Below, piece after piece: positions 42,347 through 63,133 of a DNA stretch of 64,000 nucleotides; within the stretch, counting starts at the first letter, position 1, and every line of letters begins with the position of its first letter. The position numbers and the translations under genes were made by a program. The notes under the pieces were generated by a model. It was not told where the DNA came from, did no database searches, and worked only from the letters and a program-made list of their open reading frames with translations. Source of the stretch: an uncultured Bacilli bacterium (lineage in GTDB: Bacteria; Bacillota_I; Bacilli_A; RF39; UBA660); the NCBI GenBank assembly GCA_934096125.1, contig CAKOLB010000004.1, forward strand, positions 55,117 through 119,116, given 5' to 3'.

Positions 42347-42373
42347 TGCATATTAAAAAAAAGGGGGAATTAT

Positions 42374-47335: not shown

Positions 47336-47364
47336 ATAAAAAAACTTATCGTTGTGATAAGTTT

Positions 47365-48134: not shown

Positions 48135-48638
48135 ATAACAGAATCTATAAAAGATGGGTTTTGGATTATACCTGCAAAAGTAGGTATAGATGATGCACTC
48201 ACATTACAAGATAAATTACTATATGCTCAAATCTTATCATTAACAAGACAAGATGGATTCTGTTTTGCTACTAATTCTTATCTATCTAATTTAAATAATG
48301 TTACTCCAAAAACAATTTCTAACAGTATTTCTAATCTTAAAAAAAATAATTATATACGAGTTGAATATCACAAGGAAAAAATAAATAAAGATAAAAGAAA
48401 AATATTTGTAACTGATAAGGGGGTATGGAAAACAAATCCTGGGGATATAGAAAAAAATGTTAATACCGGTATGGAAGATAATTTCCAATATAATAATATA
48501 AAGAATAAAAAGATAAAAAAATATAATACCAATAATAATGTTCCTTGGTGGCTAGATAAAGAAATTAAAGAAAATCCTGCATCTCTAGAAGAACAAGCAG
48601 AGATGGAAGCACTACTAAGCGAATTTAAAAAAGATTGA
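48135..48638 (+). CDS. Winged-helix replication-initiator-like protein whose start codon position is occupied by ATA (paralog of 52602-52895)
   Basis: The frame is open from 48117 to 48638 with no ATG, GTG or TTG in the first ~105 codons. The RBS AAAGGGGGTGAT sits 6 nt before ATA 48135. The translation aligns with the element-2 paralog (DGFWIIP...LLYAQILSLTRQDGFCFAT versus EGYVVMG...LLSIMLSLPDTWCYST), which starts with ATG at the equivalent position. Confidence 0.45.
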   Translation: MTESIKDGFWIIPAKVGIDDALTLQDKLLYAQILSLTRQDGFCFATNSYLSNLNNVTPKTISNSISNLKKNNYIRVEYHKEKINKDKRKIFVTDKGVWKTNPGDIEKNVNTGMEDNFQYNNIKNKKIKKYNTNNNVPWWLDKEIKENPASLEEQAEMEALLSEFKKD

Positions 48639-48937
48639 AAAGGAGTTGGTTTTATAAATAAATACAAGACTAAATCATAAAATTTAATAAAAAGGAAAAG
48701 GGGGAATTATAAGAATGGAGGTAGTACTTAAGGCAAAACACACATTTAAAACTGATATATCAAACGAAGAATTATTTAGAGATAGATTTAACGAGATATT
48801 GTTAAAAGTTATATTGCATCTTGAGCAAAATTACCAAAGTAGTTAAAAAAATTATAAATAACTATCAAAAAGGGGTATAATATAAGTTGTAGTCGATTTA
48901 GTTCTGATAGTTATACACAGAATTGGAGGATATAACT

Positions 48938-50533
48938 ATGAGACTAAGAGTTGGTATTTATGGGAGGTTATCACAAGAGGATATAGATAAGATAAACAAA
49001 GAAGATGAAAGTGAAAGTATCCAAAATCAAAAAAGAATGTTATTAGAGTATGCTTTAAAAAATGATTGGGATGTAGTTGATATTTATATTGATGAAGATT
49101 ATTCAGGTGCTGGAGTTTATAGACCAGAGTTTGAGAGAATGCTAAAAGATTGTGAAAATGGAAAACTAGATATAGTTTTATGTAAGAGTCAATCAAGATT
49201 CTCGAGAGATATGGAAATAATTGAAAGATATATAAATAACAAATTTAAAGAATGGAATGTTAGATTTATTAGTTTAGTAGATAATATAGATACTGATAAT
49301 AAATCTAATAAGAAATCTATTCAAATATTAGGACTAACTAATGAATGGTATTTAGAAGATTTATCAGATAACATTAAAAGAACAATTAGGAATAAAAAAG
49401 AGTCTGGACAATTTACTGGTTCATTTGCTCCCTATGGTTATTTAAGAAGTGAAGAAGATAAACACAAATTAGTTATTGATCCTATTGCTTCAATCATTGT
49501 TAAAAAGATATTTGAAATGTATAAACAAGGTAATGGTTATACTAAAATAGCAACTTATTTGAATGATACTAATGTTCCTAGTCCTTATGAACACAAAAAA
49601 GCAAGTGGTAGTAAATTTGTATGTGGAAATGTTGGAAAGGAAAAATCATATTGGTATTCAGATACAATTGCTAAAATCTTAAAAGATGAAGTATATATTG
49701 GAAATCTAGTACAAGGAAAAACAAGGCATATAAGTTATAAAAATAAAAAATCAGTTCCTGTTCCTAAAGAAGATTGGATAATTGTTAAAAACACACACGA
49801 ACCTATAATAGATGAAGATACTTGGAATATAGTTTCTGCTAAATTTAAAGGTAGGACAAAGCCAAGTAAATCTGGGGAAATTCATATGTTTACTAAAAAG
49901 GTTTATTGTGATTGTTGCAAAAAAATATTTTATAATGGTTATTCTAAATCAGGAAATGGGAACAAGCATTATTATTTAACTTGTAAGTCTAGAAAATCAG
50001 GGGTGTTTTGTGAAAATAATCTATCTATTAGAGTAGATAAATTAAAAGACTTTATCCTTAATGAGATTAATGAATATATCAAAGTTTATCATAATTCTAA
50101 AGCTTTAAATGAGAAATACCAAAAATTAAATACTAAGAATAATAAAAATGAGATTCAAGAACAAATTAAAACTTTGGAAAAACAACAAACTGAATTAGAA
50201 AAATCACAAAGTAAAAAGAATTCTTATTTAAGAAAATTATATGAAGATAGAATAGAGGGTTTCATTACTGATGAGCAATACAAAGCTTTTAGTAAAGACT
50301 ATGATGATGAATTAAATGAATTGCAAAACAGAATTCAATTAATAAAAGATGAAATCACTCTCTTAAATCAAAGGCACAGTGATATGATTGATAGAGATAA
50401 AATATTTAATAAATATAAATCTATAAAGGAATTAGATAGAAGTATATTAGATGATTTTATAGAAAAAATATATATCGGTGCAGTAGATAAAGAAACGAAT
50501 GAACGAGAAATAAATATTGTATGGGCCATATAA
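48938..50533 (+). CDS. Large serine recombinase (TnpX-like resolvase/integrase) of element 1
   Basis: N-terminal catalytic domain (RVGIYGRLSQED... with the serine in YGRLS, and ...SRFSRD), followed by a recombinase domain and a Cys-rich zinc ribbon (CDCCKK...CKSRKSGVFC). ATG 48938 has a GGAGGA RBS. Confidence 0.9.
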   Translation: MRLRVGIYGRLSQEDIDKINKEDESESIQNQKRMLLEYALKNDWDVVDIYIDEDYSGAGVYRPEFERMLKDCENGKLDIVLCKSQSRFSRDMEIIERYINNKFKEWNVRFISLVDNIDTDNKSNKKSIQILGLTNEWYLEDLSDNIKRTIRNKKESGQFTGSFAPYGYLRSEEDKHKLVIDPIASIIVKKIFEMYKQGNGYTKIATYLNDTNVPSPYEHKKASGSKFVCGNVGKEKSYWYSDTIAKILKDEVYIGNLVQGKTRHISYKNKKSVPVPKEDWIIVKNTHEPIIDEDTWNIVSAKFKGRTKPSKSGEIHMFTKKVYCDCCKKIFYNGYSKSGNGNKHYYLTCKSRKSGVFCENNLSIRVDKLKDFILNEINEYIKVYHNSKALNEKYQKLNTKNNKNEIQEQIKTLEKQQTELEKSQSKKNSYLRKLYEDRIEGFITDEQYKAFSKDYDDELNELQNRIQLIKDEITLLNQRHSDMIDRDKIFNKYKSIKELDRSILDDFIEKIYIGAVDKETNEREINIVWAI

Positions 50534-50576
50534 TTTAGTCCATACAGGACTTGTGTAGAATAAACATAACCTCCAC

Positions 50577-50806
50577 ATGGTGGTGATGATCCGGGGACTA
50601 TTGCAAATGGAATAACTGAAAAAGATTATACTTTGAAGATAACAAATTATATTCACAACAGATTAGATGAACTTGGAGTGCCAAATAAATTATCGAGGAG
50701 TACTGATGAGACTTTAGATGCCAGTAGTAGGCCACAGAGAATACAAAGTCTTTATGGAAATGGGAGTGATGTGATTGTTGTGTCTAATCACATAAATGCA
50801 GGGGGA
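50577..50806 (+). pseudogene. Segment B (~75 codons) of the interrupted amidase gene, lying between the two elements
   Basis: HGGDDPGTIANGITEKDYTLKITNYI...VIVVSNHINAGG is the Amidase_3 core. The frame then runs into element 2 (QDA, stop). Confidence 0.7.
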
Positions 50807-50928
50807 CAGGACGCGTAATATGTGGTTAATCGTAGGCGCAGTGTATAACTTTAATAAGCTTCTTATTTTACTGTATATGATGGTATAATAGATATATCAA
50901 ATAACTTTAAAGATGAGAGGTGAAAAGA

Positions 50929-51840
50929 ATGTTATATATAACTGGTGATACTCATGGAGATTTTTATAGATTTGGTCATTTAGGATTAAATGAAGGTGAT
51001 ATTATGATTATCTTAGGGGATGTGGGTATTAATTATTACTTAGATGAATATGATAAAAAGTTAAAGGAAAGATTAAAAAGATATAATTTTAAATTTTTCT
51101 GTATTCAAGGTAATCATGAAAAAAGACCAGAAAATATTTCAAGTTACCACGAAGTGGAAATGTTTGGCGGTAAAGTATTTGTAGAAGATGAATATCCTAA
51201 TTTAGTATTTGCTAAAAATGGAGAACTTTATAATATTGATGACAAAAGTATTTTAGTAATAGGTGGAGCTTATTCTATTGATAAAGATTATAGAATAAGT
51301 AAAGGATATCCTTGGTTCAAAGATGAACAATTAACTGAGAAAGAGAGACTAAATATATTGGACGAGTATTCTGGTAAACATGTGGATATAATTTTATCTC
51401 ATACTTGTCCATTAAGATATGAACCTAAAGAAAGCTTTAAATTAAGTTTGCCACAGATTGCGATAGATAAATCTATGGAGTATTTTCTAAATGAAGTAGA
51501 GCAAAGAGTAGATTATGGTAAATGGTATTGTGGACATTATCATTTAGAAAAAATTGTGGACAAGTTAGAGTTTATGTTTGGAAGAATTAAAAGTGTTGAC
51601 ACAGGAGAATTTATTCCTAAATATGATTTCCATAATGGCTACAAAATAGTTAGAGATGTATGTAGTCAAAAAGATTATAAATATTGTCCTGAATGTAAAG
51701 GAGATAATATAATTATAGAAAAAGGTGAAGGACATAATATTAATGGTTTAGATTTTATTGCTATCATTTGTAATGATTGTAAAAAAGTTTATGGATTTAA
51801 TGATGTTAATTATAAACGTAATTGTCCTAAAGAATTGTAA
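50929..51840 (+). CDS. Calcineurin-like metallophosphoesterase with C-terminal zinc ribbon
   Basis: GDTHGD and GNHE motifs. C-terminal CPECKG...CNDCKK. Confidence 0.65.
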   Translation: MLYITGDTHGDFYRFGHLGLNEGDIMIILGDVGINYYLDEYDKKLKERLKRYNFKFFCIQGNHEKRPENISSYHEVEMFGGKVFVEDEYPNLVFAKNGELYNIDDKSILVIGGAYSIDKDYRISKGYPWFKDEQLTEKERLNILDEYSGKHVDIILSHTCPLRYEPKESFKLSLPQIAIDKSMEYFLNEVEQRVDYGKWYCGHYHLEKIVDKLEFMFGRIKSVDTGEFIPKYDFHNGYKIVRDVCSQKDYKYCPECKGDNIIIEKGEGHNINGLDFIAIICNDCKKVYGFNDVNYKRNCPKEL

Positions 51841-51914
51841 CTGTGTTTACCAAATTTTAAAATTTATGCTATAATTAAGATGTAATAATTATTTGACTAA
51901 GTGTGGTGAGTAGT

Positions 51915-52550
51915 ATGGAGTATAGAAAATATTCATTTAGACATGCAGAAGATATTTTTAAAAACGATAAGGATTTTACTTATTTATGGAATGAAATTTT
52001 GGAAGTGCTTGATAGTATAAGCGATGATGATTTAATTAATGAATTTAACATTGAAACTAGAAAAGCAAAAAGCATTTCCGAAGCAATTAATAAATTAATT
52101 GCAAAAAGGCTAAGTGAAAAAGGATGGCATGAACAAAGTTACATTTTTGCTGACCCTGATTATTCTGATAATAAAGGTACATGGAGATTAGATTTTGCAA
52201 AAGATAATATTGCAATTGAAGTTGCATTTAATCATGGAGGAAATGTATCTTGGAATTTAATTAAGCCAGTATTATCTAGTGAATTAAATCATGTTAAAAA
52301 GGCAATACAAACTCAAGCTGGCGTTGTCATAACAGCAACTGATGCTATGAAAAAAGCCGGTGGATTTGATAATGCTATCGGTACCTATGAAAAATATGTT
52401 GAATATCTAAAACCATTAAATAATTTGTTAACCACACCTATGATGATAATAGGATTAGAACCACCAAAAAAGTTTACTATTGAGCAGAAAAAAGAAGATG
52501 GTAAAATGGTTGGACATGTTAAATTAAAAGAAGAAGATAATAACTTTTAG
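51915..52550 (+). CDS. Hypothetical protein, possibly a BglII/BstYI-family type II restriction endonuclease
   Basis: From memory, the block RLDFAKDNIAIEVAFNHGGNVSWNLIKPVLSSELNHV resembles the BglII active-site region (D-x9-E-V-Q/x...EL-H). The gene sits beside a GATC-type R-M pair. This is an unverified recollection. Confidence 0.3.
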   Translation: MEYRKYSFRHAEDIFKNDKDFTYLWNEILEVLDSISDDDLINEFNIETRKAKSISEAINKLIAKRLSEKGWHEQSYIFADPDYSDNKGTWRLDFAKDNIAIEVAFNHGGNVSWNLIKPVLSSELNHVKKAIQTQAGVVITATDAMKKAGGFDNAIGTYEKYVEYLKPLNNLLTTPMMIIGLEPPKKFTIEQKKEDGKMVGHVKLKEEDNNF

Positions 52551-52601
52551 ACTTACAATTTTGTGAGTCTTTTTATTTTGAAAAAGAAAGGATACGATAT
52601 T

Positions 52602-52895
52602 ATGAAAATAAAAACAAATAGAGAAGAGGGTTATGTAGTTATGGGTAACTATCATCTAAGAGATAAAAAATTAAGCTTAAAAGCAAAAGGACTATTATCT
52701 ATAATGTTGTCATTACCAGACACATGGTGTTATTCCACGCTAGGATTATCTAGTATTTGTGTTGAAAGCAGGGATACAGTTAGAAATATATTAAAAGAAT
52801 TAAAGGAAGCAAAATATTTAAAGGTAGTTGAAAATAGAGATGAAAATGGTAGATTTAATTATGAATATGTAATTTATGAAAAACCCTATATGTAA
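52602..52895 (+). CDS. Small winged-helix replication-initiator-like protein (paralog of the 48135-48638 ORF)
   Basis: MKIKTNREEGYVVMGNYHLRDKKLSLKAKGLLSIMLSLPDTWCYST. Confidence 0.45.
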   Translation: MKIKTNREEGYVVMGNYHLRDKKLSLKAKGLLSIMLSLPDTWCYSTLGLSSICVESRDTVRNILKELKEAKYLKVVENRDENGRFNYEYVIYEKPYM

Positions 52896-53069
52896 TAATC
52901 CATGGTATCATTACGGTTACATGGATTTCCGTATGCGGTTATTTATTCACAATAAATTATTTAGAAGTAATTAATAAAACAAATAGATAAAGTCGATAAA
53001 ACCTCTATCGATTCAAAAAAAGAGAAGGTTTTATAGTATAATTTCTCTTTTCATTGGTTAATTTAGCTA

Positions 53070-54467
53070 TTAAATAAATTCTTTTAATATATTTTCTAAG
53101 TATTTACTATTTAACCAAAAACAATGCTTTGTATATTCAGCTAATCCTGTTAACTTGTCTTTTACAGGTAATGGCAAAGTATCTTTTGAGTCTCTAGCAT
53201 GTGGTCTAACATGGCAAACTCCATTATCCCCGATTCCTGGAAAGTTAGTATTTCTTTTACCCATATTATCAATTGATTTAATAATATTTCCAGATAAAAT
53301 AATGTTTTTTGTATTATTCCACATATTTTTCACTTCATTTTCAAGTGTTAGTTCTGGCATGTTCCATAATTTTATACCACTAAAGATATAATCATTATCT
53401 TTCTTTTTAAATATAAAGAACATGTATTTTGTAGTTTCTAATTCTTCTTTTAACTTTGATTCTTCCCAATCAGTTGTTTTAAAATCCATATAATTGAAAT
53501 ATGGAAAAGGCATAGATTCTTTAATGTGTCCATTTTCTTCAACTCTGATTGTTCTTGGAACTATATTTGCTTTTTGGAATTCATCAGTATCACGAAGTCT
53601 AGATTTAACATTAAACATTCTAGCTATCAGTATTCCATTTAAATTTTTTGCATTAGAATCAATATTAAATTCATGCATTAATTGTTTTTGAGTTTTCCCC
53701 TGATATTTCTTGGTAACATTTTCAACAAATTCAGTAAATGATTCACCAGCATTTTTAATAACTTTTTCAACATCTTCATAATTTCCAATATATTTTCTAA
53801 CGAGTCCTGTCATATAAGAAGTTTTTAAACAAAATGCTCTTTGCTTTGCTTTAATTGATGAAAAAGGTTGTTCTCTAACGGATTTTTTATTTGCTCCTTT
53901 TGTACAAGCACCAAGATACATTGTATCTGCTTCTGATATCTCATGGGCTTTTCCTTGTTTAATTTTATTAATTATTGTTTCCCAATCCTTAATAATTATT
54001 GGTAAATCTTCTTTTGGAAATGTAAATAATAACTCGTGTGTTATTCTTAAATCATTTTTATTTTTGTGAGGTTCGTAAAAATACCAAATTATTTGAATTT
54101 TATTATTTTTAAACCAAAAATGACTAGAGTAAAATTCATTTTTATATTCATCCATATAATTAATTATGTTTAGAACAAGTCTTTCTTTAGCTGATAAAGT
54201 ATTGTCTTTGTTTTTCTTATACGGTGTAACTTTAAGTTCTATTCCCGCATCAATAAAGTCAGGCGCAGATATTGAATTAATGTTGTATCCATATACATTA
54301 GTTTCAAATAAATGACCAAAGAAAGCTTTATTAAACTTTTCATCATCTTTGTTATATTCATTGTTATAAATAGTTGTTACATTCATATTATTTAATTCTT
54401 TAAAAGTTTTTCCTAATGCACTTTTAGCTAAAATTTGAATTTCATCTTTTGTGTAACTTTTTGCCAT
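53070..54467 (-). CDS. Sau3AI-like type II restriction endonuclease (MutH-like fold, GATC-type)
   Basis: 465 aa with a Sau3AI/MutH-like N-terminal pattern (LAKSALGKTF...FFGHLFE...GIELKVTP). It is divergent from a cytosine-5 methyltransferase gene. Confidence 0.6.
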   Translation of the reverse strand: MAKSYTKDEIQILAKSALGKTFKELNNMNVTTIYNNEYNKDDEKFNKAFFGHLFETNVYGYNINSISAPDFIDAGIELKVTPYKKNKDNTLSAKERLVLNIINYMDEYKNEFYSSHFWFKNNKIQIIWYFYEPHKNKNDLRITHELLFTFPKEDLPIIIKDWETIINKIKQGKAHEISEADTMYLGACTKGANKKSVREQPFSSIKAKQRAFCLKTSYMTGLVRKYIGNYEDVEKVIKNAGESFTEFVENVTKKYQGKTQKQLMHEFNIDSNAKNLNGILIARMFNVKSRLRDTDEFQKANIVPRTIRVEENGHIKESMPFPYFNYMDFKTTDWEESKLKEELETTKYMFFIFKKKDNDYIFSGIKLWNMPELTLENEVKNMWNNTKNIILSGNIIKSIDNMGKRNTNFPGIGDNGVCHVRPHARDSKDTLPLPVKDKLTGLAEYTKHCFWLNSKYLENILKEFI

Positions 54468-54636
54468 AAAAATTTCCTTTCGATCTTGTTTTTATCTCAA
54501 AAATAATTTAAAATATATATATAGTGTTGATCTTTTTAAAATATTATTTTATAATTAATATGTAAGAAGTTGATCTTTTCGCTTAAATATATTATAATAT
54601 ATTTAAATATGTTTAACAATTATTAGGAGGCGTTTT

Positions 54637-55875
54637 ATGCAAAAAACAGTAGTAGAATTATTTGCCGGTGTTGGTGGATTTAGATGTGGATTAAATAATG
54701 TAAAATTAAAAGATAATAAAGTTATTGAAAAAGGTAATTGGAATTTTGTGTGGGCGAATCAATGGGAACCTTCTACTAAAACACAAGAGGCTTTTGAATG
54801 CTATTCAAAAAGATTTGGAAAGGATGATGTTAGTAATGTAGATATATTTCAAGTAAATAAAAAAGAGATACCTAATCATACTTTATTAGTTGGTGGTTTT
54901 CCATGTCAAGATTATTCTGTTGCACAGACACTATCTAATAGCAAAGGAATTGATGGAAAAAAAGGTGTTTTGTGGTGGGCAATTGCAGATATATTAAAAG
55001 TTAAGAAACCTCCATTTGTGTTTTTAGAAAATGTTGATCGCTTACTTCTTTCGCCAGCGAGTCAAAGAGGCAGAGATTTTGGAATAATTTTGAGAAGTTT
55101 TTATGAAAATGGATATGATTTAGAATGGCGAGTTATCAATGCGGGAGAATATGGATTTCAACAAAAACGTAGGAGAATTTATATAATTGCATATCACAAA
55201 TCAACTAAATATTGTAAGAAAATGAGAAAAATTGATAAGAAAAATATATTACTTAAGGAAGGTATTTTCATAAAACAGTTTCCTGTAAAAGAGAAAGAGT
55301 TTAACTCAAATGTATCAAGTATTTCAGAATATAAAGATTTAGTCGATGTTAGTGATAATTTTAAAAACCAATTTTATAATTCTGGAGTTATGATAAATGG
55401 TGAAATATATACTGCCAAATTAGAACATAATTGCGATAGTGTATATCAGTTAGGCAATTTAATAGAAACTAATAAGGTTGATGAAAAATATTTCCTTTCA
55501 AAAGATAGAATTGAGAAATTTAGAATATTAAAGGGAAGTAAAAGAATACCTAGAAAAAAGCCAAATGGAGATGATTACATTTATTCTGAAGGTTCAATGC
55601 CATTTCCTGATAATCTAAATGTTCCTGCTAGAACAATGCTGACTTCAGAAAGTGGAACTAGCAGAATGACACATGTTATAGAGGACTATAGAACTAAAAA
55701 ATTAAGATTTTTAACACCATTAGAGTGTGAAAGAATTAATGGATTTCCAGATAATTGGACAAATACTGGGATGAGTGATAAGAAACGATATTTCATGATG
55801 GGTAACGCTTTAGTAGTAAATGTTGTTGAAAAAATAGGGATTGAATTGGAAAAAATAGTAGAAATGGAAGAGTAA
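54637..55875 (+). CDS. DNA (cytosine-5)-methyltransferase
   Basis: Motif I LFAGVGG, motif IV GGFPCQDYS, motif VI ENV (FLENVDRL), and a C-terminal target-recognition region. Confidence 0.9.
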   Translation: MQKTVVELFAGVGGFRCGLNNVKLKDNKVIEKGNWNFVWANQWEPSTKTQEAFECYSKRFGKDDVSNVDIFQVNKKEIPNHTLLVGGFPCQDYSVAQTLSNSKGIDGKKGVLWWAIADILKVKKPPFVFLENVDRLLLSPASQRGRDFGIILRSFYENGYDLEWRVINAGEYGFQQKRRRIYIIAYHKSTKYCKKMRKIDKKNILLKEGIFIKQFPVKEKEFNSNVSSISEYKDLVDVSDNFKNQFYNSGVMINGEIYTAKLEHNCDSVYQLGNLIETNKVDEKYFLSKDRIEKFRILKGSKRIPRKKPNGDDYIYSEGSMPFPDNLNVPARTMLTSESGTSRMTHVIEDYRTKKLRFLTPLECERINGFPDNWTNTGMSDKKRYFMMGNALVVNVVEKIGIELEKIVEMEE

Positions 55876-55984
55876 ATGAAAAAATGTTAAAATTTGGTAA
55901 TTTATCTAAATAGTGTTATAATTTTATACAGAAGATATGCAGTATTTGTCTTTTTAAGATGGATACTGCATTTTTTTGAAGTAG

Positions 55985-56950
55985 GTGGTAGTATTGGATT
56001 CACTTAATTATGAAGTTTTTAAAAAAATAAAGAAATATTATAATGATAATTGCAAACCTTTAATTTTTGTTGGAGAAAAATTATTATCGCAGAATAACAA
56101 ATGTAAAATGTATTTTTGTGATGTTGATTTAAATCAAGAAAAAGAAAATTATAGAAAAGTTTTTCAAGAATATTTGGCACTTTATGTTAGAAATCATGAT
56201 TTGCTAAAATATTATGATAAGATTATAAAAAGTGAAACAGAAGATGAAATTTCAGAAGCTTTAATTTATTATGGAAATGATTTGTGGAATAATACCGTAT
56301 TGATAACTACAACTACACCAGAGACTTTAGGGATATATGGAGAAGCCATTAATGATTTTTATTTAAATATTGTTAAGAATGAAAATATAATTATCACTTA
56401 TTCAGCAAAAAGGGGGTATGGTGAACGTAATATAAAAGGGGTAGATGTAGTTGCATGTACTTGGAAAAAAGATAATCTTGTACTAATATTTTCTGAGTGT
56501 AAATTTGTCGAATCAATATATAAGGCGTCGTGTGGTTTATATAATGATATAAAGGGAACTCAATATGAATTGGCACATATAAGTAAAGATTATATAAACG
56601 GATATTCTACTTATATTGTTGATAATGCTCATTCAATTTTTGCAGAGAGTAATAATTCAGATAAAATTATAGATGTTTTGGACAAATTGAATAGTAGGAT
56701 AATAAATGGAAACAAGGCGATAGATGTGTTTAATGAATTAAACATAAAAATTCAATTTAATTTCTTTGCAATTTACTGTGATAATAAATTTACACCAGAT
56801 GAAAGACAAATAATGTTTGAAAAAGTATATAATGCTTTTTATGAAAATGTAAAATTAACAGGTATTAAAAATTATGATATGGAAATTGTGTATATACCTA
56901 TTAAAAATACAAGCTCTGTGGTAAAGGAATGTATGAGACAATGGAATTGA
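55985..56950 (+). CDS. HamA-like (DUF1837-type) protein with a PD-(D/E)xK motif; Hachiman-like component A
   Basis: GVDVVACTWKKDNLVLIFSECKF gives D...(E)xK spacing typical of PD-(D/E)xK nucleases. It lies immediately upstream of, and overlaps, an SF2 helicase gene. The TTG or GTG start follows an AGGTGG RBS. Confidence 0.45.
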   Translation: MVVLDSLNYEVFKKIKKYYNDNCKPLIFVGEKLLSQNNKCKMYFCDVDLNQEKENYRKVFQEYLALYVRNHDLLKYYDKIIKSETEDEISEALIYYGNDLWNNTVLITTTTPETLGIYGEAINDFYLNIVKNENIIITYSAKRGYGERNIKGVDVVACTWKKDNLVLIFSECKFVESIYKASCGLYNDIKGTQYELAHISKDYINGYSTYIVDNAHSIFAESNNSDKIIDVLDKLNSRIINGNKAIDVFNELNIKIQFNFFAIYCDNKFTPDERQIMFEKVYNAFYENVKLTGIKNYDMEIVYIPIKNTSSVVKECMRQWN

Positions 56951-59322
56951 CACGAAATACAATTGTAAAGAAAATAAATTTATTTTCAATGGAAAGGAAT
57001 AATAAAGAATTAATAAATCTACTATGTGATATTTTAGAAAGTAAAAATTACATGGATAATTATGATCTTATTTTAATTATAATAAATATTGCCGAACTTT
57101 ATGGTTATCAAGAATTTTTTAATAATTTTGATGCAAATAGTATACCTAAATATAACGTGCATGCAATATCTAATGATATTAGAAAAAATCTATATAAAAG
57201 CAAAAAAGGTAATAATATATATTATAATTCTGGACAATTATCTTTATTAAAAGAATTATCACTATATGATAAGCTTTTTATATCAGCTCCCACGTCATTT
57301 GGTAAAACCAGTTTAGTTTTAGAGCATATAGCAATGAATAACTCAATATATAAAACTATTATTTTTTTAGCTCCAACTAATGCATTAGTAGAAGAATTGT
57401 ATCTAAAATTTTTAAAATTAAATAAAGAATGTAATTTAAATTATGATGTAATAACAATGCCAAAAAATAAAAATAATAATACAATATGGATATTAACACC
57501 AGAGAAATTTTTACTTTTGGTTGAAGAAAAAAGTATAGATTTTGATTTGATAGTTATGGATGAGGCTTATAAAATTGAAAATGAAGAATCAATTGATAGA
57601 AAAGATATTTTAAATTCTAGGTCAAGCAAATATAGGAAAGTAATGGAATATATGGCTAATTCTAATTCGAAGATTATATTTTTATCTCCATATACTTATA
57701 ATAAGGCGCCATCTATGACAAGATTCTTAAAAAAATATAGTATCAAGGATATTGACAGGAATATTAATTATGTAAAAAAAGACATAATAGATATTTATGA
57801 TAGCAAAAGTTATAAAAGTAATTTTTCCAATAGTATATTTAGTATTAAAAAAGGTGATTCTGGGATTAAAAAAGCAATGGCAGCTGTTCCCTATTTATCT
57901 GATAATACAATTATATATGTAAAATATCCAAGTGAGGCAATAAAAGTTTTAGAATTAATGCCTAATGAAAAAGCAAGTATAGATAATGAAAGATTTAAAA
58001 AATTTTTGAACCATTTAAAAGAAAATTATTTATTTGAAGACAGCAATTGGTATATTATAGATGCTCTAGAAAAGGGAATTGGCATATATGTATCACCTAT
58101 TCCTCGATATATAAAAAAAGAAATAATATATTTATTTAATAAGGGAATAATAAAAAAACTTATAGTTACAACTGCATTTGCTGAAGGAGTTAATAGTTCA
58201 GCTAAGAACATAATTATAACAAATAGAATAACAGGATCTAATAAAAAACTAACTAATTTGGATATATTGAATTTAAGTGGTAGAGCAGGCAGATTTGGTG
58301 TATATAGCAAAGGAAAAGTTTTTTCTGCAGTTGAAGAAGTAAGTGATATTTTAAGAAAATCATCTGAAAATGGAGTAATTATAAATAATCCTAATTACGA
58401 ATTAGCAAGTGATATTATACCTAGAACTGATTATGAAATCGATATGATAGATGATTATCTATTAAATGAAGAAGAAAAAAATATAAAGGAAACCACAAAA
58501 AAAAGGCAATTAAATTTTAATTTGACCAACGATGATTTAAATATAGCTTTATCAATTGCAAATGAAATAAAAATCGATGTATATTCATATTTTTTTGAAA
58601 CAATTAACAATGGAAAAATTCAAGATATAAGATTTAATAATATTAAAAATTTATTGTCTACAGAGAAAAATGATATTATAAAATCAATTACATTTATTTT
58701 TAACGAATTAAAAAATGCAGATATTCCAATAGTTTCAGATTTTGGTGATATTAATCCATTTAATAGTAAAGGTGATTTTATTTGGGGCATTTTTTACGGA
58801 ATCCACTCTTCAGGAAATATTAGAGATGTTTTGAAATCAAGAAAAGGCTTTATTTTAAAACAGTTAAGTGAAATTGAAAAAATATTAAATTTAAAACTTA
58901 AAAATTTTAATAATAAAGAAATAGAAAAAATATTACGTGAGTACGATAAAAAATGGATATACGATTATTTAACTAAAGGTGAAATTGATGATGCAAAACT
59001 ATATAATGGTGCATTTAAATTTATATCAAACATAATTGAATATAGAATACCATTTTATATTGGATTGTATATATCAGTTTTTAAAATGTTTTGTAGAAAG
59101 AATAATTTAAATTATGATTTTAATTTTGATATTGTTGAAATATCTACATCATTAGAAAATAAAAATATAGAAAAAAAGTATTCTGATATGTTGGAATTTG
59201 GCATACCATTAGATACAATCAAAAAGATAAATAAATTTAAAAATGATAATAATATTTTTGAAATATTAGATGATTATGAAAAAATTATGTTAAGTGAATA
59301 TAATTACTATTTTGATAAATAA
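56929..59322 (+). CDS. SF2 DExH-type helicase, HamB-like (Hachiman-like component B)
   Basis: Motif I APTSFGKTS, motif II VMDEAY and motif VI SGRAGRFG. 797 aa, overlapping the upstream gene by 22 nt. Confidence 0.5.
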   Translation: MYETMELTRNTIVKKINLFSMERNNKELINLLCDILESKNYMDNYDLILIIINIAELYGYQEFFNNFDANSIPKYNVHAISNDIRKNLYKSKKGNNIYYNSGQLSLLKELSLYDKLFISAPTSFGKTSLVLEHIAMNNSIYKTIIFLAPTNALVEELYLKFLKLNKECNLNYDVITMPKNKNNNTIWILTPEKFLLLVEEKSIDFDLIVMDEAYKIENEESIDRKDILNSRSSKYRKVMEYMANSNSKIIFLSPYTYNKAPSMTRFLKKYSIKDIDRNINYVKKDIIDIYDSKSYKSNFSNSIFSIKKGDSGIKKAMAAVPYLSDNTIIYVKYPSEAIKVLELMPNEKASIDNERFKKFLNHLKENYLFEDSNWYIIDALEKGIGIYVSPIPRYIKKEIIYLFNKGIIKKLIVTTAFAEGVNSSAKNIIITNRITGSNKKLTNLDILNLSGRAGRFGVYSKGKVFSAVEEVSDILRKSSENGVIINNPNYELASDIIPRTDYEIDMIDDYLLNEEEKNIKETTKKRQLNFNLTNDDLNIALSIANEIKIDVYSYFFETINNGKIQDIRFNNIKNLLSTEKNDIIKSITFIFNELKNADIPIVSDFGDINPFNSKGDFIWGIFYGIHSSGNIRDVLKSRKGFILKQLSEIEKILNLKLKNFNNKEIEKILREYDKKWIYDYLTKGEIDDAKLYNGAFKFISNIIEYRIPFYIGLYISVFKMFCRKNNLNYDFNFDIVEISTSLENKNIEKKYSDMLEFGIPLDTIKKINKFKNDNNIFEILDDYEKIMLSEYNYYFDK

Positions 59323-59636
59323 AATCATGTCCGTTGACTGTCCTATAAATTTATGGTAAAATGGTAATATAGGATAAGTGTAAGAGATGCAAATTTATGA
59401 GAGGATTTTCCCTCTTTTTTTGTGTCTTTAAAAAAAATTATCTTTTTGAAAGAAAGGTAAATTTTATCTAAAATATTCTAAACTGTCGGAGACTATTAGT
59501 GGGTTTTAGGGATATTCCCTAACAAGCTAGATGGGTGTGTATACACCATGCTTGATATATTATATTACACGGGTATGTAACCTCAAAATAGGATTTAATG
59601 GTAATCTGAAATGTGGTATGAAATGAAAGGAGAAAT

Positions 59637-60209
59637 ATGGAATTTAAGTCAATGGAGAAGTGGCGTGTTTTACAGAAGTTTAAAATTAGCGAAAAACAGT
59701 ATAAGAGATTAGTGAAAAGATTAAAAAGAAGACATCCTAATGAAAGATGGATTGATGAACATTTTGCTCAAAATGGTGAAAGAGTAGTATATCTAAAATT
59801 AGAATTTGTAGAATGGATAGAAGAAGTTTATTTAAATAACAATCTATTTTATTTAGATGCTGAAATTGTTTTCTTTAAAAAGCAAATATTAAGACTAGAA
59901 GATGAATTAAATTTTCCTCATAGTGGGTTTGAATATGAAGATATATCTTTAAAAGATTTAAGGGAGTATTTTAATAAGAGTAAAGATGTGATAGGTGTTG
60001 CAATAAATAGAATGGAAAAGAGAAATGATAAATCATTCAAGTATATAAAAGATGCTAAAGTTATGATTAATAAAGAAGGCGTTAAATGGTTAAGTGAAAA
60101 CTATTTCCGTAAAGATTATTTAAAAAAGTTAGAATTTTATAAATTAGAACTTCAAAATGTTAAGAGAAAAAGAAATAGATTAAAAGAATATAGTATTTTC
60201 TATTACTAA
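59637..60209 (+). CDS. Hypothetical basic protein upstream of the recombinase (possible recombination directionality factor or regulator)
   Basis: 190-aa ORF, Lys/Arg-rich, with no recognised motif. Confidence 0.3.
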   Translation: MEFKSMEKWRVLQKFKISEKQYKRLVKRLKRRHPNERWIDEHFAQNGERVVYLKLEFVEWIEEVYLNNNLFYLDAEIVFFKKQILRLEDELNFPHSGFEYEDISLKDLREYFNKSKDVIGVAINRMEKRNDKSFKYIKDAKVMINKEGVKWLSENYFRKDYLKKLEFYKLELQNVKRKRNRLKEYSIFYY

Positions 60210-60463
60210 CTAGATTAGTTTGGAATATAACTAATTTTTTTATGTCCTAATTTTGATAATAAAGTCTTATAGTTGTTCTTATTTCATAAAATGAAAGGAG
60301 AGGTGTAGATTAGTGAATATAACTGAAACTTTCGATAAAGATAAAAACTTGGTTGAATTAATAGAGGAGTATTTAAAATTGATGTTAGAAAATAGTAAGC
60401 AATAAGAGTTTGTGATATAATGATATTGCTTATTGAAGTTATACACGTTGGAAGGAGTAGTAA

Positions 60464-62089
60464 GTGTATAACAATGTAATACAAGCACCAAGTTTTTATA
60501 GAGTAGGTATATATATCAGATTATCAGAAAGTGATGAAGATAAAACTTATGAGTCAGAGAGTGAAAGTATAATCAATCAAAGAAATTTATTAATGGATTA
60601 TGTAAAAATGAGTGGATTTACTTTGGTTGATGAGTATGTAGATGATGGATTTACAGGAACTAACTTTGATAGGCCTTCTTTTCAAAGATTATTAAAAGAT
60701 ATTGAAAGTGGTCGAATCAATTGTGTAATCACAAAAGACTTATCAAGATTAGGTAGAGATTATATTCAATGTGGATATTATGTAGAACAATATTTTCCAC
60801 AAAAGAAAATTAGATATATTTCTATACTAGATCAAGTTGATACATTTCTAGAAAGTGCTAATAATGACATTGCTCCATTTAAAGCTTTGTTTAATGATAT
60901 GACTAGTAAGGATACTTCTAAGAAGATTCGTTCAATATTAAAAAATAAAAAAGAACAGGGTAAATTTATTGGAAGCAAACCATGTTATGGATATATGAGA
61001 GATCCACTTGATAAAGGACATTTAATACCCAATCCAGAAGTTGCTCCTGTTGTTAAAAGGATATTTAAAATGGCTCATTCTGGAACTGGAGTAAGTGATA
61101 TAGTATCATACTTAAATGATAATAAGATATTAAGCCCTAGTATGTATAAAAATACTAAATCATCTTCAAGACAAAAAGTGAATGTATGGACAATATCCTC
61201 AGTCAACAAATTACTAAAAAATAGAATGTATACAGGAGATATGGTACAAAATGTTCAAACTAAGTTAAGTTATAAATCTCAGAAGAAAGTTGCTTTAGAA
61301 AAAGAGTTTTGGATAATAGTTGAAAATACTCATGAACCTCTTGTTAGTAAAACAGTATTTGAAGCAATACAAAATGCTCCTGCTAGAGTAAGGACAACCC
61401 ATTGTAATAGAGAAAAAAGATTATTAGAAAATCTTCTTGTTTGCAAAGAATGTGGAAACTCTTTAAGCGTTCTTTATAGAAAAAATAAAAATTATAAGGG
61501 TGGAAAGTATTGGAGTGTTAATTGCAATAAATATGCAAGAGATCCAAGAAGACATTTGTGCTATCCACACTTCTTTCCTTATGATAAACTAGAAGAAAAA
61601 ATAATGAGTGTTATTAAAACTACTTGTCAAAAATATTTAGATAGTTTAAATATCAAAGAATTATCTGAAAGAGTATTACAAGATAGAGCAAAGGAAAAGA
61701 ATGATAGGCAAAAGGAAAAGCAACAATTATTAAATGAGATTGATGAATTAAAAAGAAAATCTGATGCTTTATATGATGACAAATTTAATGGAATAATAAG
61801 TGTTGATACTTATACAAGAATCTCTGCACAAACTGAAAAACAAATATCAGCCTTAAATTATAGAATTTATGAAATAGATAATGAAGAAAATCAGATTAAA
61901 GAAGATACAAAAGAAATAACTAAATATGAAGAACAAATAAAATCACTTTTAAATTTAGATGAACCCAACAGAGAACTCATAAAAACTTTAGTAAAAAAAA
62001 TTTATATAGATAAAGATAGAAATATAGAAATTCAATATAGATTTAAGGTGCTAGATGATATAAAAACTAATTATGAAGAAATAAATTAA
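60464..62089 (+). CDS. Large serine recombinase (TnpX-like) of element 2, GTG start
   Basis: RVGIYIRLSESDED (catalytic Ser) ...SRLGRD, a recombinase domain, a zinc ribbon CKECGN...CNKYARDPRRHLC and a C-terminal coiled coil. RBS GGAAGGAG. Confidence 0.9.
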   Translation: MYNNVIQAPSFYRVGIYIRLSESDEDKTYESESESIINQRNLLMDYVKMSGFTLVDEYVDDGFTGTNFDRPSFQRLLKDIESGRINCVITKDLSRLGRDYIQCGYYVEQYFPQKKIRYISILDQVDTFLESANNDIAPFKALFNDMTSKDTSKKIRSILKNKKEQGKFIGSKPCYGYMRDPLDKGHLIPNPEVAPVVKRIFKMAHSGTGVSDIVSYLNDNKILSPSMYKNTKSSSRQKVNVWTISSVNKLLKNRMYTGDMVQNVQTKLSYKSQKKVALEKEFWIIVENTHEPLVSKTVFEAIQNAPARVRTTHCNREKRLLENLLVCKECGNSLSVLYRKNKNYKGGKYWSVNCNKYARDPRRHLCYPHFFPYDKLEEKIMSVIKTTCQKYLDSLNIKELSERVLQDRAKEKNDRQKEKQQLLNEIDELKRKSDALYDDKFNGIISVDTYTRISAQTEKQISALNYRIYEIDNEENQIKEDTKEITKYEEQIKSLLNLDEPNRELIKTLVKKIYIDKDRNIEIQYRFKVLDDIKTNYEEIN

Positions 62090-62218
62090 ATAATAAAAAT
62101 AGGGTGGTAAAATTTGGTAATCACACAATCTTACCATCCCCTATACTATTTTTAGAAAAAATAAAAACGCAGTAAAATCAAGAAAAATGATAGCCTAATC
62201 ACATAAAATCTTTCCGGA

Positions 62219-63133
62219 GGTGGCGATGGTGCAGAAGTAATATATGCTCTTAGAAATAATGATGTATTTGCAAGTAAAATTGCAAGAGAACTAGAGAGTG
62301 CAGGACAAAATATTAGAAAATATTATCAGAGAAGACTTCCAAGTAATCCAGCGAAAGATTATTATTATATAATGCGAGATACTCCTAATAATGAAACTGT
62401 AATTGTAGAGTATGGGTTTGCAGATTCTACTGGTGATGATGTTGAGCAGTTAAAAAATACTTGGGAAAACTTAGCAGAAGCGGTGGTTAAAGCAATTACT
62501 GAGTATGCTGGCGGTACTTATACACTTCCAAATACGGGCAATTATTACATAGTTAAAAGTGGTGATAGTCTATGGAGCATATCCAAAAAAACAGATGTTT
62601 CTATTGCCAAGATTAAGGAACTTAATAATCTTAAGAGTAATTTGTTAAGTATTGGTCAGAAATTAACATTACCACAAACAAGTGAAGATACCCCATCGCT
62701 AGATACATATATTGTTCAAAAAGGCGATAGTTTATATAAAATCGCTAACAAGTTTAATACTACTGTTGATAACTTAAAACTTATTAACAATCTTCAAAGC
62801 AATAATTTAGCTATAGGTCAAAAATTAAAGGTAAGTAGTAGTGAAAACAAATACACAGTGCAAAAAGGTGATACACTATACAGCATTGCCACTAAATTTT
62901 CTGTTAGTGTAGATTCATTAAAAAACGCTAATAATTTAGTTAGTAACACAATTGCCGTTGGTCAATCCTTAATTATCCCAGAACAAAAAACAACTAAAAC
63001 TTATACGGTTCAAAAAGGCGATAATCTTTATAGCATAGCAAGGCGATATAATACGACTGTAAATACAATAATGTCTTTAAATAATCTAGCTTCAACTAAT
63101 TTAACTATCGGTCAAAAGCTACTTGTTCCGTAA
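62219..63133 (+). pseudogene. Segment C (~305 codons) of the interrupted amidase gene: Amidase_3 C-terminal part plus four LysM repeats
   Basis: DGAEVIYALRNN...YIMRDTPNNETVIVEYGFADS, then four LysM repeats (YIVKSGDSLWSIS..., YIVQKGDSLYKIA..., YTVQKGDTLYSIA..., YTVQKGDNLYSIA...). It is in frame with segment B across the GA junction. Confidence 0.75.

Follow-up and report, generated by a model that had tools for sequence, protein, structure and literature searches.

A large serine recombinase element integrated at a GG core within an Amidase_3-LysM gene of an uncultured gut Bacilli bacterium

The 64,000-nucleotide stretch of DNA analysed here (the window) carries a chromosomal Amidase_3-LysM gene split by two elements, Element 1 in a GHGG codon and Element 2 in a Gly codon (Table 1). 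We conclude that a large serine recombinase, LSR2, mobilises Element 2, a site-specific integrative element, and we put at roughly 80% the probability that it lies in the amidase gene by way of a GG crossover core. Comparison of sequences shows the junctions, core, att architecture, site specificity, horizontal spread and cargo identities. The further proposal that both elements leave the gene during sporulation is tentative, and we give it a little under an even chance.

Table 1. Features of the split amidase locus, with positions in the window
Feature	Position	Strand	Evidence or remark
Amidase candidate sigma-K-type -10 box, GCATATAATA	42177..42186	+	23 nt 5′ of ATG; -35 degenerate in window
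Amidase fragment A, MNDRALKKVVLDAGH...	42201..42244	+	tblastn with N-terminus of intact homologues; sequence
Element 1, 8.3 kb	42245..50575	+	Pfam, PADLOC
Element 1 Mob_Pre relaxase	42374-43633		Pfam, PADLOC
Element 1 AAA_13 ATPase	43679-45910		Pfam, PADLOC
Element 1 HTH regulators (two)			Pfam, PADLOC
Element 1 micro-ORF	48715-48846		
Element 1 recombinase LSR1, with DUF4368	48923-50533		Pfam, PADLOC
Amidase fragment B, HGGDDPGT...SNHINAG-G	50576..50805	+	Translation; tblastn 98.7% to rebuilt protein
Element 2, 11,415 bp	50806-62218 plus one GG core copy		
attL crossover dinucleotide GG, Element 2	50804..50805	+	Register comparison; dyad centre
attP P′ arm, ACAGGACGCGTAATATGTGGTTAATC	50806..50831	+	
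Metallophosphoesterase, cargo	50920..51840	+	Pfam Metallophos 3.9e-8; phrog_1649 1.2e-29
BglII-like restriction endonuclease, cargo	51903..52550	+	Pfam Endonuc-BglII 1.1e-11
HTH_36 protein	52563..52895	+	Pfam; PHROG replication-initiation families
Sau3AI/MutH-type type II restriction endonuclease, cargo	53070..54467	-	Pfam MutH 2.6e-30; PADLOC REase_II 3.3e-105
C5 cytosine DNA methyltransferase, cargo	54637..55875	+	Pfam 2.2e-65; PADLOC MTase_II 9.4e-166
Hachiman-like pair, cargo	55985..59322	+	HamA-like 55985-56950; HamB helicase 56929-59322
orf190	59637..60209	+	Adjoins recombinase module
Candidate mother-cell (sigma-E/K class) -10 box, TCATAAAATG	60284..60293	+	Upstream of micro-ORF
Conserved micro-ORF, 30 aa, MNITETFDKDKNLVELIEEYLKLMLENSKQ	60313..60405	+	Candidate recombination directionality factor
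Extended -10-like TGTGATATAAT and conserved GTTATACAC motif	60411..60446	+	5′ of LSR2 gene
LSR2, 541-aa large serine recombinase	60464..62089	+	Resolvase + Recombinase + Zn_ribbon_recom
attP P arm, GCCTAATCACATAAAATCTTTCCGGA	62193..62218	+	
attR crossover dinucleotide GG, Element 2	62219..62220	+	
Amidase fragment C, -GGDGAEV..., then LysM repeats, stop	62219..63133	+	Translation

Junctions of Element 2 point to a GG core

At the left junction (attL, AATGCAGGGGGA|CAGGACGCG) the Ala codon GCA (50798-50800) is followed by five G residues (50801-05) and an A (50806), and at the right junction (attR, CTTTCCGGA|GGTGGCGATGG) GGA (62216-18) is followed by GGTGGC (62219-24) and GAT (62225-27). The insertion site is G-rich. 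The in-frame registers with a shared dinucleotide are GG@2 and GG@5, both with three Gly; GG@5 and GA@6, both with four; and two more GG registers with only two. A sequence-only reading of this DNA had described a precise, in-frame serine recombinase integration into an Amidase_3 motif, which the junctions support, and had placed it within 50780-62240, an interval that covers the element with limits off by 3 bp.

That reading chose the GA register, in which a Tn4451/TnpX-type element is flanked by GA and a GA crossover restores NAGGGGDGAEV. The junction sequences that it quoted are present, with GA on both sides, and removal of one GA copy does leave the frame intact; the product, however, would have four Gly residues. 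Among the best 120 full-length homologues we found the motif in 117, as NAGGGDG/EG in 115 and NAGSG in 2, so that a four-residue motif occurs in none of the 117 and a three-residue one in all. Nor is the simple GA deletion what relatives carry at the empty site, which has three Gly codons (GCG GGT GGT GGA GAT and GCC GGT GGT GGA GAT in the intact genes L002 and L003). Moreover, in relatives with 97% identical recombinases (L007, L011, L021) attR reads ...TTTCCCGG|GGTG and lacks GA. Across relatives the base before GG, on the element side, varies (A, G or T), and GGTGG is constant. The GA register implies a 3-bp repeat (GGA), which we conclude is a coincidence of the flanks.

The attP arms are imperfectly symmetric, with the centre on GG: 15/26 positions of P and P′ match about a GG core (null 7.8 +/- 2.4, P(>=15)=0.004), compared with 4-6/26 in the three other models, GA among them at the null level of 6/26. 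In the 23 related loci with both junctions, the sample for our register comparison, the dyad centre of the rebuilt attP fell on GG every time, and the GA register was feasible in just 3. We consider a GA crossover highly improbable. Nearly as improbable, if slightly less so, is a crossover at the other three-Gly register, in which GG takes up nt 1-2 directly behind the Ala codon (GCA[GG]AGGTGGC). From the window alone this would also yield NAGGGDG, with an expected empty site of GCAGGGGGTGGC and a contrary reading of GCAGGAGGTGGC, but it leaves the attP arms asymmetric (6/26), and for L014, L038, L047 and most other loci it cannot yield three residues. The one register that fits all 23 loci and the three residues has its GG at nt 4-5 behind the Ala codon. 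These loci share ancestry, and their counts are thus not counts of independent events.

On the GG-core reading, LSR2 would have recombined attP GCCTAATCACATAAAATCTTTCCGGA[GG]ACAGGACGCGTAATATGTGGTTAATC with an attB ...CACATAAATGCAGGG[GG]TGGCGATGGTGCAGAA inside the chromosomal amidase gene, through a 2-bp staggered cut at GG, bases 1-2 of the second Gly codon in SNHINAGGGDGAEV, and precise excision would restore NAGGGDGAEV. Relatives whose recombinases are 80-97% identical retain the P arm. Searches for a same-species empty site and for a circular joint, which the GA reading expected to hold a single GA, found neither, and the GG core accordingly stands as a comparison among relatives and not as an observed product. 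A four-Gly empty site contrary to the GG core would read AATGCAGGGGGAGGTGGCGAT, and a contrary circular joint TTTCCGGACAGGACG.

A conserved right-end module with swappable cargo

The right end of Element 2 is a conserved module that holds orf190, the 30-aa micro-ORF, LSR2 and the P arm; its cargo is swappable. In the window this cargo is anti-phage: a restriction-modification pair of Sau3AI-like type, a nuclease resembling BglII, a Hachiman pair (PADLOC: HamB 8.9e-71; HamA weak, 2.3e-4) and a phosphoesterase. The HTH_36 protein resembles the N-terminal DNA-binding domain of replication initiators and is semi-conserved among related elements (tblastn to L022-L025). Conservation of orf190 extends to 13 loci (38-90% identity), and it had no match in Pfam, PHROG or further family searches.

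Element 1 is an integrative mobilisable element of Tn4451-like build. Fragment A of the amidase ends with the CA of a His codon; this CA serves as the Element 1 attL core, and by hand analysis the attP dyad of this element is also centred on CA. Its attR1 is common to L045, L068 and L089.

LSR2 relatives occupy a single codon in many species

We examined 80 genome loci with relatives of LSR2. The amidase was split at the same codon in 69, and in 10 of the other 11 the contig ended too soon or the downstream flank was too short; L042 has a frameshifted recombinase adjoining non-amidase DNA. No insertion in another gene was found among the 80 loci. The LSR2 family is strictly single-site specific and not transposon-like.

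LSR2 is related to TnpX, as the sequence-only reading had correctly suspected. Among solved structures it best matches the catalytic domain of TnpX (2MHC; E=9.5e-31, 48% identity), its alignment with a TnpX-like protein of 709 aa scores 245 bits (30% identity across 520 aa), and TnpX is closer to it than are the TP901-1, phiC31 or A118 integrases, all of which favours a Tn4451-type element. LSR2 is nevertheless a distant relative; it lacks the ~170-aa C-terminal extension of TnpX and has no significant DUF4368 match in Pfam, and Pfam detects no Mob gene in Element 2. With the single target site, these features set Element 2 apart from the behaviour expected of Tn4451.

The elements pass between species. 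Recombinases 94-98% identical lie beside amidase fragments that are just 52-86% identical, with shared DNA limited to the right 2.9 kb (92-94% identity), and in L001 the same GG of a 98%-identical amidase gene is occupied by another element. One family of these elements, in which recombinase identity falls as low as 47% and the attP arms change to match, sits at this codon in many uncultured gut Bacilli species.

A possible link to sporulation

The host is an uncultured gut Bacilli bacterium with a genome of ~28% G+C. It encodes YabG (283.8 bits, which exceeds the curated threshold), GerQ (86 bits), a CwlD-like amidase (194 bits) and a SpoVT-like protein, and relatives have a SleB-like gene near the amidase locus. 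Endolysins commonly take the form of an Amidase_3-LysM protein that lacks a signal peptide, and the genes in the first 42 kb of the window all lie on one strand, as might be expected if the amidase were a prophage endolysin and the elements were nested in a prophage. We regard this as barely credible, since the flanks consist of housekeeping and sporulation genes (metG, ksgA, yabG, clpP, gap, ftsEX, whiA, cwlD, htrA, ABC transporters), synteny with PF06541 and SleB-like genes is retained in intact relatives, and no phage structural genes were seen.

The amidase probably belongs among the late mother-cell genes, under sigma-K, of a spore-forming host. The sigma-K consensus is KCACM / GCATANNNTA, as quoted in PMC3416734, and the orthologous upstream regions give the logo T(A/C)AC-16-CATAnWnTA. 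CATAnnnTA lies <=45 nt from the amidase start in 27/30 of these regions (background 5.5%), and AC-16/17-CATAnnnTA is found in 23/30 (background 2.7%); the promoter assignments are consensus matches in a ~28% G+C genome.

Upstream of the micro-ORF, CATA.A.T is invariant in a 14-sequence alignment, and a -10 box is present in 48/57 loci, at a fixed 37-42 nt in 45 of those (background 6%), with a -35 that only partially matches sigma-E. The micro-ORF itself occurs in 57 loci (recombinase identity 48-97%) and, with 462/303/1181 differences by codon position, is conserved as coding sequence; it has no Pfam family match. Immediately 5′ of the recombinase gene, TGnTAWAMT is found in 28/57 loci and GTTATRCA in 49/57. 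Both motifs also precede LSR1. LSR2 is probably expressed from a housekeeping-type promoter, and Element 1 repeats the layout of Element 2: a sigma-E/K-type -10 box, a conserved micro-ORF and a recombinase gene.

The sporulation genes of the host, the sigma-K-type amidase promoter, the micro-ORF -10 boxes and the co-splitting by Element 1 suggest mother-cell excision like that of skin and SPβ. The micro-ORF would act as directionality factor from its sigma-E/K-class box, and during sporulation both elements would leave the mother-cell chromosome, rebuilding the amidase gene. At 30 aa the candidate is smaller than any citable directionality factor (58-72 aa), and LSR2 might need no accessory factor, because TnpX and TndX work without one (PMC2475636).

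A substantial competing possibility, although also short of an even chance, keeps the GG core and assigns the elements no developmental role: a dispensable amidase is knocked out, excision is rare and serves transfer, and neither the CATA boxes nor the micro-ORF has any bearing on sporulation. Horizontal mobility of the elements is clear, distant large serine recombinases commonly share one conserved target gene (bioRxiv 10.1101/2021.11.05.467528), TnpX-like enzymes can run in both directions without a factor, and the promoter calls are by consensus only. On the other hand, 59/61 interrupted 3′ amidase fragments in relatives still have an ORF of at least 250 aa, the amidase and the micro-ORF both have conserved mother-cell-class promoter boxes at fixed positions, sporulation genes are present in the host, and the promoter/micro-ORF/recombinase layout is common to two independent element families.

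Comparison with known systems

Like Element 2, skin is a large serine recombinase element (C. difficile CD1231, with directionality factor CD1234; B. subtilis SpoIVCA) that interrupts, in frame, a sporulation gene of the mother cell in a spore-forming host. The layout proposed for Element 2 is that of skinCd, in which the recombinase is under sigma-A and a 72-aa factor is driven by sigma-E (PMC5025042); the 30-aa candidate is unrelated to that factor in sequence. The skin target is sigK and its cargo is prophage remnants, whereas here an Amidase_3-LysM gene holds two unrelated elements and the cargo of Element 2 is anti-phage systems. Unlike skin, the elements described here are clearly still moving between species, and their excision is a prediction from sequence.

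SPβ in spsM (SprA/SprB) and gin in gerE (GirC/GirX) are likewise precise large serine recombinase insertions in sigma-K-controlled mother-cell genes. In SPβ, sprA is expressed in growth, and the promoter of the 58-aa sprB combines a perfect sigma-E/K -10 with an imperfect -35 (PMC4191935), like that of the micro-ORF; gin, like Element 2, is non-phage and carries a restriction-modification system (PMC5595907). Target genes and hosts differ, as do the cores (9-bp overlap with predicted AA core in gin, another in SPβ, GG in Element 2), and the present family spans dozens of species at one codon with diversified attP arms.

LSR2 is homologous to the recombinases of Tn4451/Tn4453 (TnpX) and Tn5397 (TndX), and Element 1 shares with Tn4451 the Mob_Pre relaxase and the DUF4368 recombinase build. 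TnpX elements are reportedly flanked by GA and inserted at many sites, whereas the cores here are GG (Element 2) and CA (Element 1) and insertion is limited to one codon. For TnpX elements PMC3158075 states only a 2-bp target.

The integrase of Listeria phage A118 acts within comK, also a coding gene, at an asymmetric GG crossover dinucleotide, and has a low-symmetry attB and a symmetric attP, as in Element 2 (PMC3556126). A118 is a phage and Element 2 is not, and its integrase is just 24% identical to LSR2 (81 bits). The A118 recognition motif lies nearer the centre in attB than in attP (PMC3783163), with a shift of 5 bp; for CTAATCACATAAA here the corresponding shift is 4 bp.

Organization of the split amidase gene

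At the left junction of Element 2 (attL), the window reads ...TCTAATCACATAAATGCAGGGGGACAGGACGCGTAATATG, in which the Ala codon GCA (50798-50800) is followed by five G (50801-05) and an A at 50806, and at the right junction (attR) it reads ...CTAATCACATAAAATCTTTCCGGAGGTGGCGATGGTGCAGAAGTA, in which GGA (62216-18) is followed by GGTGGC (62219-24) and GAT (62225-27). Translation of the left flank ends ...VIVVSNHINAGG, and the right flank continues as GGGDGAEVIYALRN... and then LysM repeats. Homologues of the rebuilt amidase are 395-450 aa long with the N-terminus M..R.LKKVVIDAGHGG, and the N-terminus absent from these flanks was located at 42201-42248 (MNDRALKKVVLDAGHG). The amidase gene is split three times, not twice. 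The two elements between its fragments, Element 1 of 8.3 kb and Element 2 of 11.4 kb, each have a large serine recombinase gene on the amidase strand at the right end (LSR1 and LSR2, respectively). The amidase has no signal peptide.

Features of the split amidase gene, its two elements and sporulation-related genes in the window
Feature	Position	Description
SpoVT/AbrB-like gene	435-923	just under cut-off
YabG gene	5209-5985	283.8 bits (curated cut-off 270.4)
GerQ-like gene	16085-16453	86 bits, just under cut-off
CwlD-like gene	27157-27807	193.8 bits, just under cut-off
Candidate amidase -10 box	42177-86	GCATATAATA
Amidase fragment A	42201-42244	
Element 1	42243-50577	8.3 kb; Mob_Pre relaxase (98 bits), AAA_13 ATPase, two HTH regulators, LSR1 with DUF4368
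Element 1 box	48675	TCATAAAAT
Element 1 micro-ORF	48715-48846	43 aa
Element 1 motif	48910-48918	GTTATACAC, just 5′ of the LSR1 ribosome-binding site
Amidase fragment B	50576-50805	
Element 2 cargo		phosphoesterase; BglII-like nuclease
Element 2 cargo		short HTH_36 protein, resembling the DNA-binding end of replication initiators
Element 2 cargo		Sau3AI/MutH-type nuclease and C5 methyltransferase
Element 2 cargo		Hachiman pair: HamB (8.9e-71), HamA (weak, 2.3e-4); genes overlap by 22 nt
Element 2 micro-ORF	60313-60405	30 aa, MNITETFDKDKNLVELIEEYLKLMLENSKQ
Element 2 motif	60438-60446	GTTATACAC, just 5′ of the LSR2 ribosome-binding site
Amidase fragment C	62219-63133	

An intact allele of more than ~72% identity was not found in the protein database, where the only closer match was a 99%-identical 3′ fragment (P0042). 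Among relatives, 59 of 61 split amidase 3′ fragments retained an open reading frame. Ten of the 120 best amidase homologues (P0047-P0049, P0078, P0083, P0085, P0089, P0090, P0095 and P0102) are N-terminally truncated gene calls with an internal Met start, and in P0090, the one checked, the truncation is due to an Element-1-type insertion at site 1. Thus, split alleles are common in public assemblies, mis-annotated as short genes. Two of the related loci also contain, ~1 kb downstream of the split copy, an additional amidase paralogue that is intact but has a divergent motif (L035, 3765-4331, SNQFNEGEGEGAEV; L058, 8249-8800, SNQLSDGQGEGAEV).

Crossover dinucleotide of Element 2

Elements of the Tn4451/TnpX family carry GA at either end, and GA also occurs at their circular joint. 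The sequence-only reading had proposed a GA crossover of this type for Element 2, and the junctions that it quoted were found in the window, with GA present at both and the noted join in frame. However, GA is not evidence by itself, because the site is a run of G in which several registers are in frame. At the window junctions, four in-frame registers of a shared dinucleotide leave three or four Gly codons, namely GG@2 and GG@5 (GG at nt 4-5 after the Ala codon) with three, and GG@5 and GA@6 with four; two more GG registers leave only two.

Comparison with homologues argued for a three-Gly product. The motif was found in 117 of the 120 best homologues, and all 117 have three residues between NA and D/E-G-A-E (GGG in 115, GSG in 2), as in the intact DNA of two related loci (GCG GGT GGT GGA GAT in L002 and GCC GGT GGT GGA GAT in L003). 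The GA product has four residues at this position, unlike any of the 117 motif-bearing homologues, and the expectation that the empty site in relatives would equal the simple GA-deletion product therefore failed.

The junctions of related elements singled out one register. A scan of one genome per species yielded 80 loci with LSR2 relatives of 47-97% identity, in which the element side of attR varies by subfamily up to the base preceding GGTGG (...CCGGA|GG, ...CCCGG|GG, ...CACCA|GG, ...GGCTGT|GG). GA is missing at attR from three loci whose recombinases are 97% identical to LSR2 (L007, L011, L021). The GA register fits only 3 of the 23 loci with both junctions (window included). A single register, with GG at nt 4-5 downstream of the Ala codon, both fits all 23 and gives three residues. 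In the window this places the crossover GG at 50804-05 and 62219-20, with an Element 2 length of 11,415 bp and the joined product NAGGGDGAEV, which bears out the proposal of a precise serine-recombinase insertion, in frame, in the amidase motif.

Rebuilding the element site (attP) under GG@5 gave GCCTAATCACATAAAATCTTTCCGGA[GG]ACAGGACGCGTAATATGTGGTTAATC, in which the two arms match at 15 of 26 positions (P(≥15) = 0.004); the other three models gave 4-6 of 26, no better than random pairs (7.8±2.4). The best attP dyad is centred on this GG at every one of the 23 loci (10-20 of 24 matching positions; 8-11 for the runner-up). The imperfect inverted repeat expected in attP is thus present, centred on GG and not on GA. 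Several independent lines therefore agree that, as judged from the sequence, the Element 2 crossover is GG rather than GA. This assignment is comparative, because a same-species empty site (TCTAATCACATAAATGCA-N6-12-GATGGTGCAGAAGTAATATATGC, JGI metagenome contigs) and a circular or attP joint (CACATAAAATCTTTCC-N1-8-CAGGACGCGTAA, metagenome and viral contigs) each returned 0 matches.

To our knowledge, the crossover dinucleotide sets orientation and compatibility in every serine-integrase system. With a GA call, the predicted empty site and circular joint would both be wrong. The empty site predicted for this strain is AAT GCA GGG GGT GGC GAT GGT; the corresponding search strings are AATGCAGGGGGTGGCGATGG (GG model, three Gly) and AATGCAGGGGGAGGTGGCGATGG (GA model, four Gly), and those for the circular joint are TTTCCGGAGGACAGGACG vs TTTCCGGACAGGACG. 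We also observed a 13-bp identity, CTAATCACATAAA, between the host left arm (attB, 50784-50796) and the element P arm (62196-62208), which lies 4 bp nearer to GG in attB than in attP; this is reminiscent of the zinc-ribbon-domain motif of the A118-type integrase, although the shift there is 5 bp.

Relationship of LSR2 to TnpX

LSR2 (541 aa) contains Resolvase (66.7 bits), Recombinase (81.2 bits) and Zn_ribbon_recom (34.5 bits) domains, all above the curated Pfam cut-offs, and matches the PHROG 95 integrase (337 bits). Of the solved structures, the catalytic domain of TnpX matched LSR2 best (2MHC; E = 9.5e-31, 48% identity across 110 aa), with much weaker matches to TP901-1 (2.5e-14) and phiC31 (1e-4). 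As a full-length TnpX-like reference we recovered a 709-aa ORF from a Subdoligranulum plasmid that is 95.5% identical to the TnpX N-terminus, and LSR2 aligned with it end-to-end (30% identity over 520 aa, 245 bits, E = 6e-77); LSR1 is 28% identical to the same protein, and LSR2 is 24% identical to the A118 integrase (81 bits). The kinship with TnpX suggested earlier was thus upheld, and because the 2MHC and TnpX-like matches far exceed those to TP901-1, phiC31 and A118, we place LSR2 on the TnpX side of the family as a distant member.

The Tn4451-like behaviour expected of Element 2 did not follow from this kinship, as a GA core, many targets and a Mob gene are all lacking. Elements of the Tn4451/TnpX type carry a Mob/TnpZ gene, in contrast to Element 2, in which a Pfam search found no relaxase. 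According to Durrant et al. (bioRxiv 10.1101/2021.11.05.467528), DUF4368 is a mark of the TndX-like clade of multi-targeting recombinases and seldom occurs in those that are site-specific; it had no match in LSR2 and reached 15-17 bits in two relatives (cut-off 25), and it is clear in LSR1 (33 bits) and in the TnpX-like protein. For the A118 integrase, a GG core like that proposed for LSR2 has been shown experimentally (PMC3556126). From its sequence and that of its sites, LSR2 appears to act as single-site integrases do, using a GG core. Two ORFs considered as further recombinases were rejected, one being a SpoVB/MurJ-like flippase (10890-12515) and the other a uridine-kinase fusion (7814-9457).

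A family of elements at one codon

The amidase is split at the element in 69 of the 80 loci with LSR2 relatives, and insertion in another gene was not found except for the decayed copy in L042; at the other 10 loci, the contig ends too early or the downstream flank is too short to judge. In L042 (6791-8560, 11984-13051), the recombinase is frameshifted (108 aa + 423 aa), its P arm and GG are followed by the non-amidase sequence TGTGGATAAGGTG..., and an intact amidase is found 3.7 kb downstream; it may be a secondary-site copy that has decayed.

Recombinases 94-98% identical to LSR2 adjoin amidase fragments of just 52-86% identity, and the DNA common to these elements is limited to the rightmost 2.9 kb, which spans orf190, the micro-ORF, the recombinase gene and the P arm (92-94% identity), with different cargo. 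These sequence comparisons indicate that Element 2-type elements move between species. At least eight types of attP arm were distinguished, and these follow the recombinase subfamilies. The family thus offers a natural series of recombinases, 47% to 97% identical, with one attB core and diverged attP arms, which is of use in studies of DNA recognition by serine integrases. In a contig from another sample (L001, 1-490), an amidase 3′ fragment 98-99% identical to that of the window is preceded by a different element end (...GAGTGAACTATTGT|GGTGGCGATGG) at the same GG, with no recombinase gene within 470 bp; therefore, at least two different elements use this site in one species.

Cargo of Element 2 and nature of Element 1

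Among the cargo genes of Element 2, the HamA match, although weak, is full-length (16-274 of 286), and HamA (DUF1837) lies adjacent to the HamB helicase, which is the gene arrangement of Hachiman. Recombinase elements in sporulation-associated genes can thus carry anti-phage systems (restriction-modification, Hachiman) across the species of an uncultured gut lineage.

Element 1 is an integrative mobilisable element of Tn4451-like build, inserted at the His codon of the amidase motif DAGHGG; the same site is held by LSR1 relatives at other loci (L045, L068, L089/L090). Because its attL and attR share ACATGG and its attP dyad is centred on CA, the Element 1 core is probably CA, not GA.

Host lineage and candidate amidase promoter

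Genes for YabG and for GerQ-like, CwlD-like and SpoVT/AbrB-like proteins are encoded in the window, and on this basis the host lineage is probably an endospore former. Relatives carry the labels Acholeplasma sp. CAG:878, Clostridium sp. CAG:710 and Candidatus Faecimonas. The chromosomal flanks include metG, ksgA, clpP, gap, ftsEX, yvcK, whiA and htrA, and the neighbours of intact orthologues are the same, including a SleB-like hydrolase. We considered whether the amidase might be a prophage endolysin, a possibility rejected in view of these chromosomal and sporulation flanks and the conserved neighbours in intact relatives.

Upstream of the amidase we identified the motif T(A/C)AC-16 nt-CATAnWnTA, located 23-29 nt 5′ of the start codon in otherwise unconserved surroundings. 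Its conservation extends across species: of 30 loci, 27 have CATAnnnTA and 23 the full motif, compared with 5.5% and 2.7% of other upstream regions. The sigma-K consensus of B. subtilis is KCACM / GCATANNNTA (PMC3416734). The amidase motif fits this consensus, and the window amidase has a perfect -10 and a degenerate -35. From this promoter motif we infer that the amidase would be a late mother-cell gene, presumably comparable in role to CwlC. A generic sigma-70 promoter scan showed no enrichment (23 found vs 19.9±4.9 expected), and Rfam had no match between 41.5 and 64 kb of the window.

Micro-ORFs and possible coupling of excision to sporulation

Alignment of the region 5′ of the recombinase gene across subfamilies revealed a micro-ORF, present in 57 loci with recombinase identities of 48-97%, whose differences are distributed over codon positions 1/2/3 as 462/303/1181, as in coding sequence. 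The micro-ORFs and orf190 had no match in PHROGs, NCBIfam or Pfam. An invariant (T/A)CATA(A/G)A(A/T)T lies 5′ of the micro-ORF in 48 of 57 loci (background 6%), at a distance of 37-42 nt in 45 of the 48, and fits the sigma-E -10 consensus KCATANANTN, with a partial fit at -35. The interval between micro-ORF and recombinase contains an extended -10-like TGnTATAAT in 28 of 57 loci and GTTATRCA in 49 of 57. The parts of Element 1 follow one another in the same way (box, micro-ORF, TATAAT, GTTATACAC, LSR1), as do those of an Element-1-type insertion from other metagenomes, in which the micro-ORF has 47 aa. The 30- and 43-aa micro-ORFs are candidate directionality factors.

In skinCd, sigma-A drives the recombinase gene and sigma-E that of the 72-aa factor CD1234 (PMC5025042); in SPβ, growing cells express sprA, and upstream of the 58-aa sprB a perfect -10 is combined with an imperfect -35 (PMC4191935). 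The micro-ORF and recombinase layout of Elements 1 and 2, as read from the sequence, follows the logic proven in skinCd and SPβ. Together, the promoter boxes, the micro-ORFs, the analogy with skinCd and SPβ and the retention of an open 3′ fragment in nearly all split alleles make sporulation-coupled excision plausible, at somewhat less than even odds. Element 2 belongs to the known class of serine-recombinase elements inserted in frame inside conserved genes, and is very possibly of the skin/SPβ/gin kind.

These observations can be combined into a tentative overall reading, to which we assign a probability of roughly 0.4. Across a large, uncultured clade of gut Bacilli, the gene of a late mother-cell (sigma-K) amidase of the cell wall would be a common docking site for at least two element families, with the His codon of GHGG used by one and the second Gly codon of NAGGGDG by the other, each carrying an undescribed micro-protein of 30-47 aa behind a sigma-E/K-type promoter. 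The micro-protein would be a recombination directionality factor, the smallest known. Defence islands and mobilisable elements would ride silently in the germ line, and excision, sometimes of two elements per gene, would occur only in the terminally differentiating mother cell. The Amidase_3-LysM gene would join the short list of sporulation-associated genes split by recombinase elements. It is a single gene that hosts two different elements, and the very small, conserved candidate directionality factor is easy to test.

The GTTATRCA motif is similar to the GTTACAC core that some subfamilies have in their attP arms. GTTATACAC/GTTATRCA might mediate autoregulation by the recombinase.
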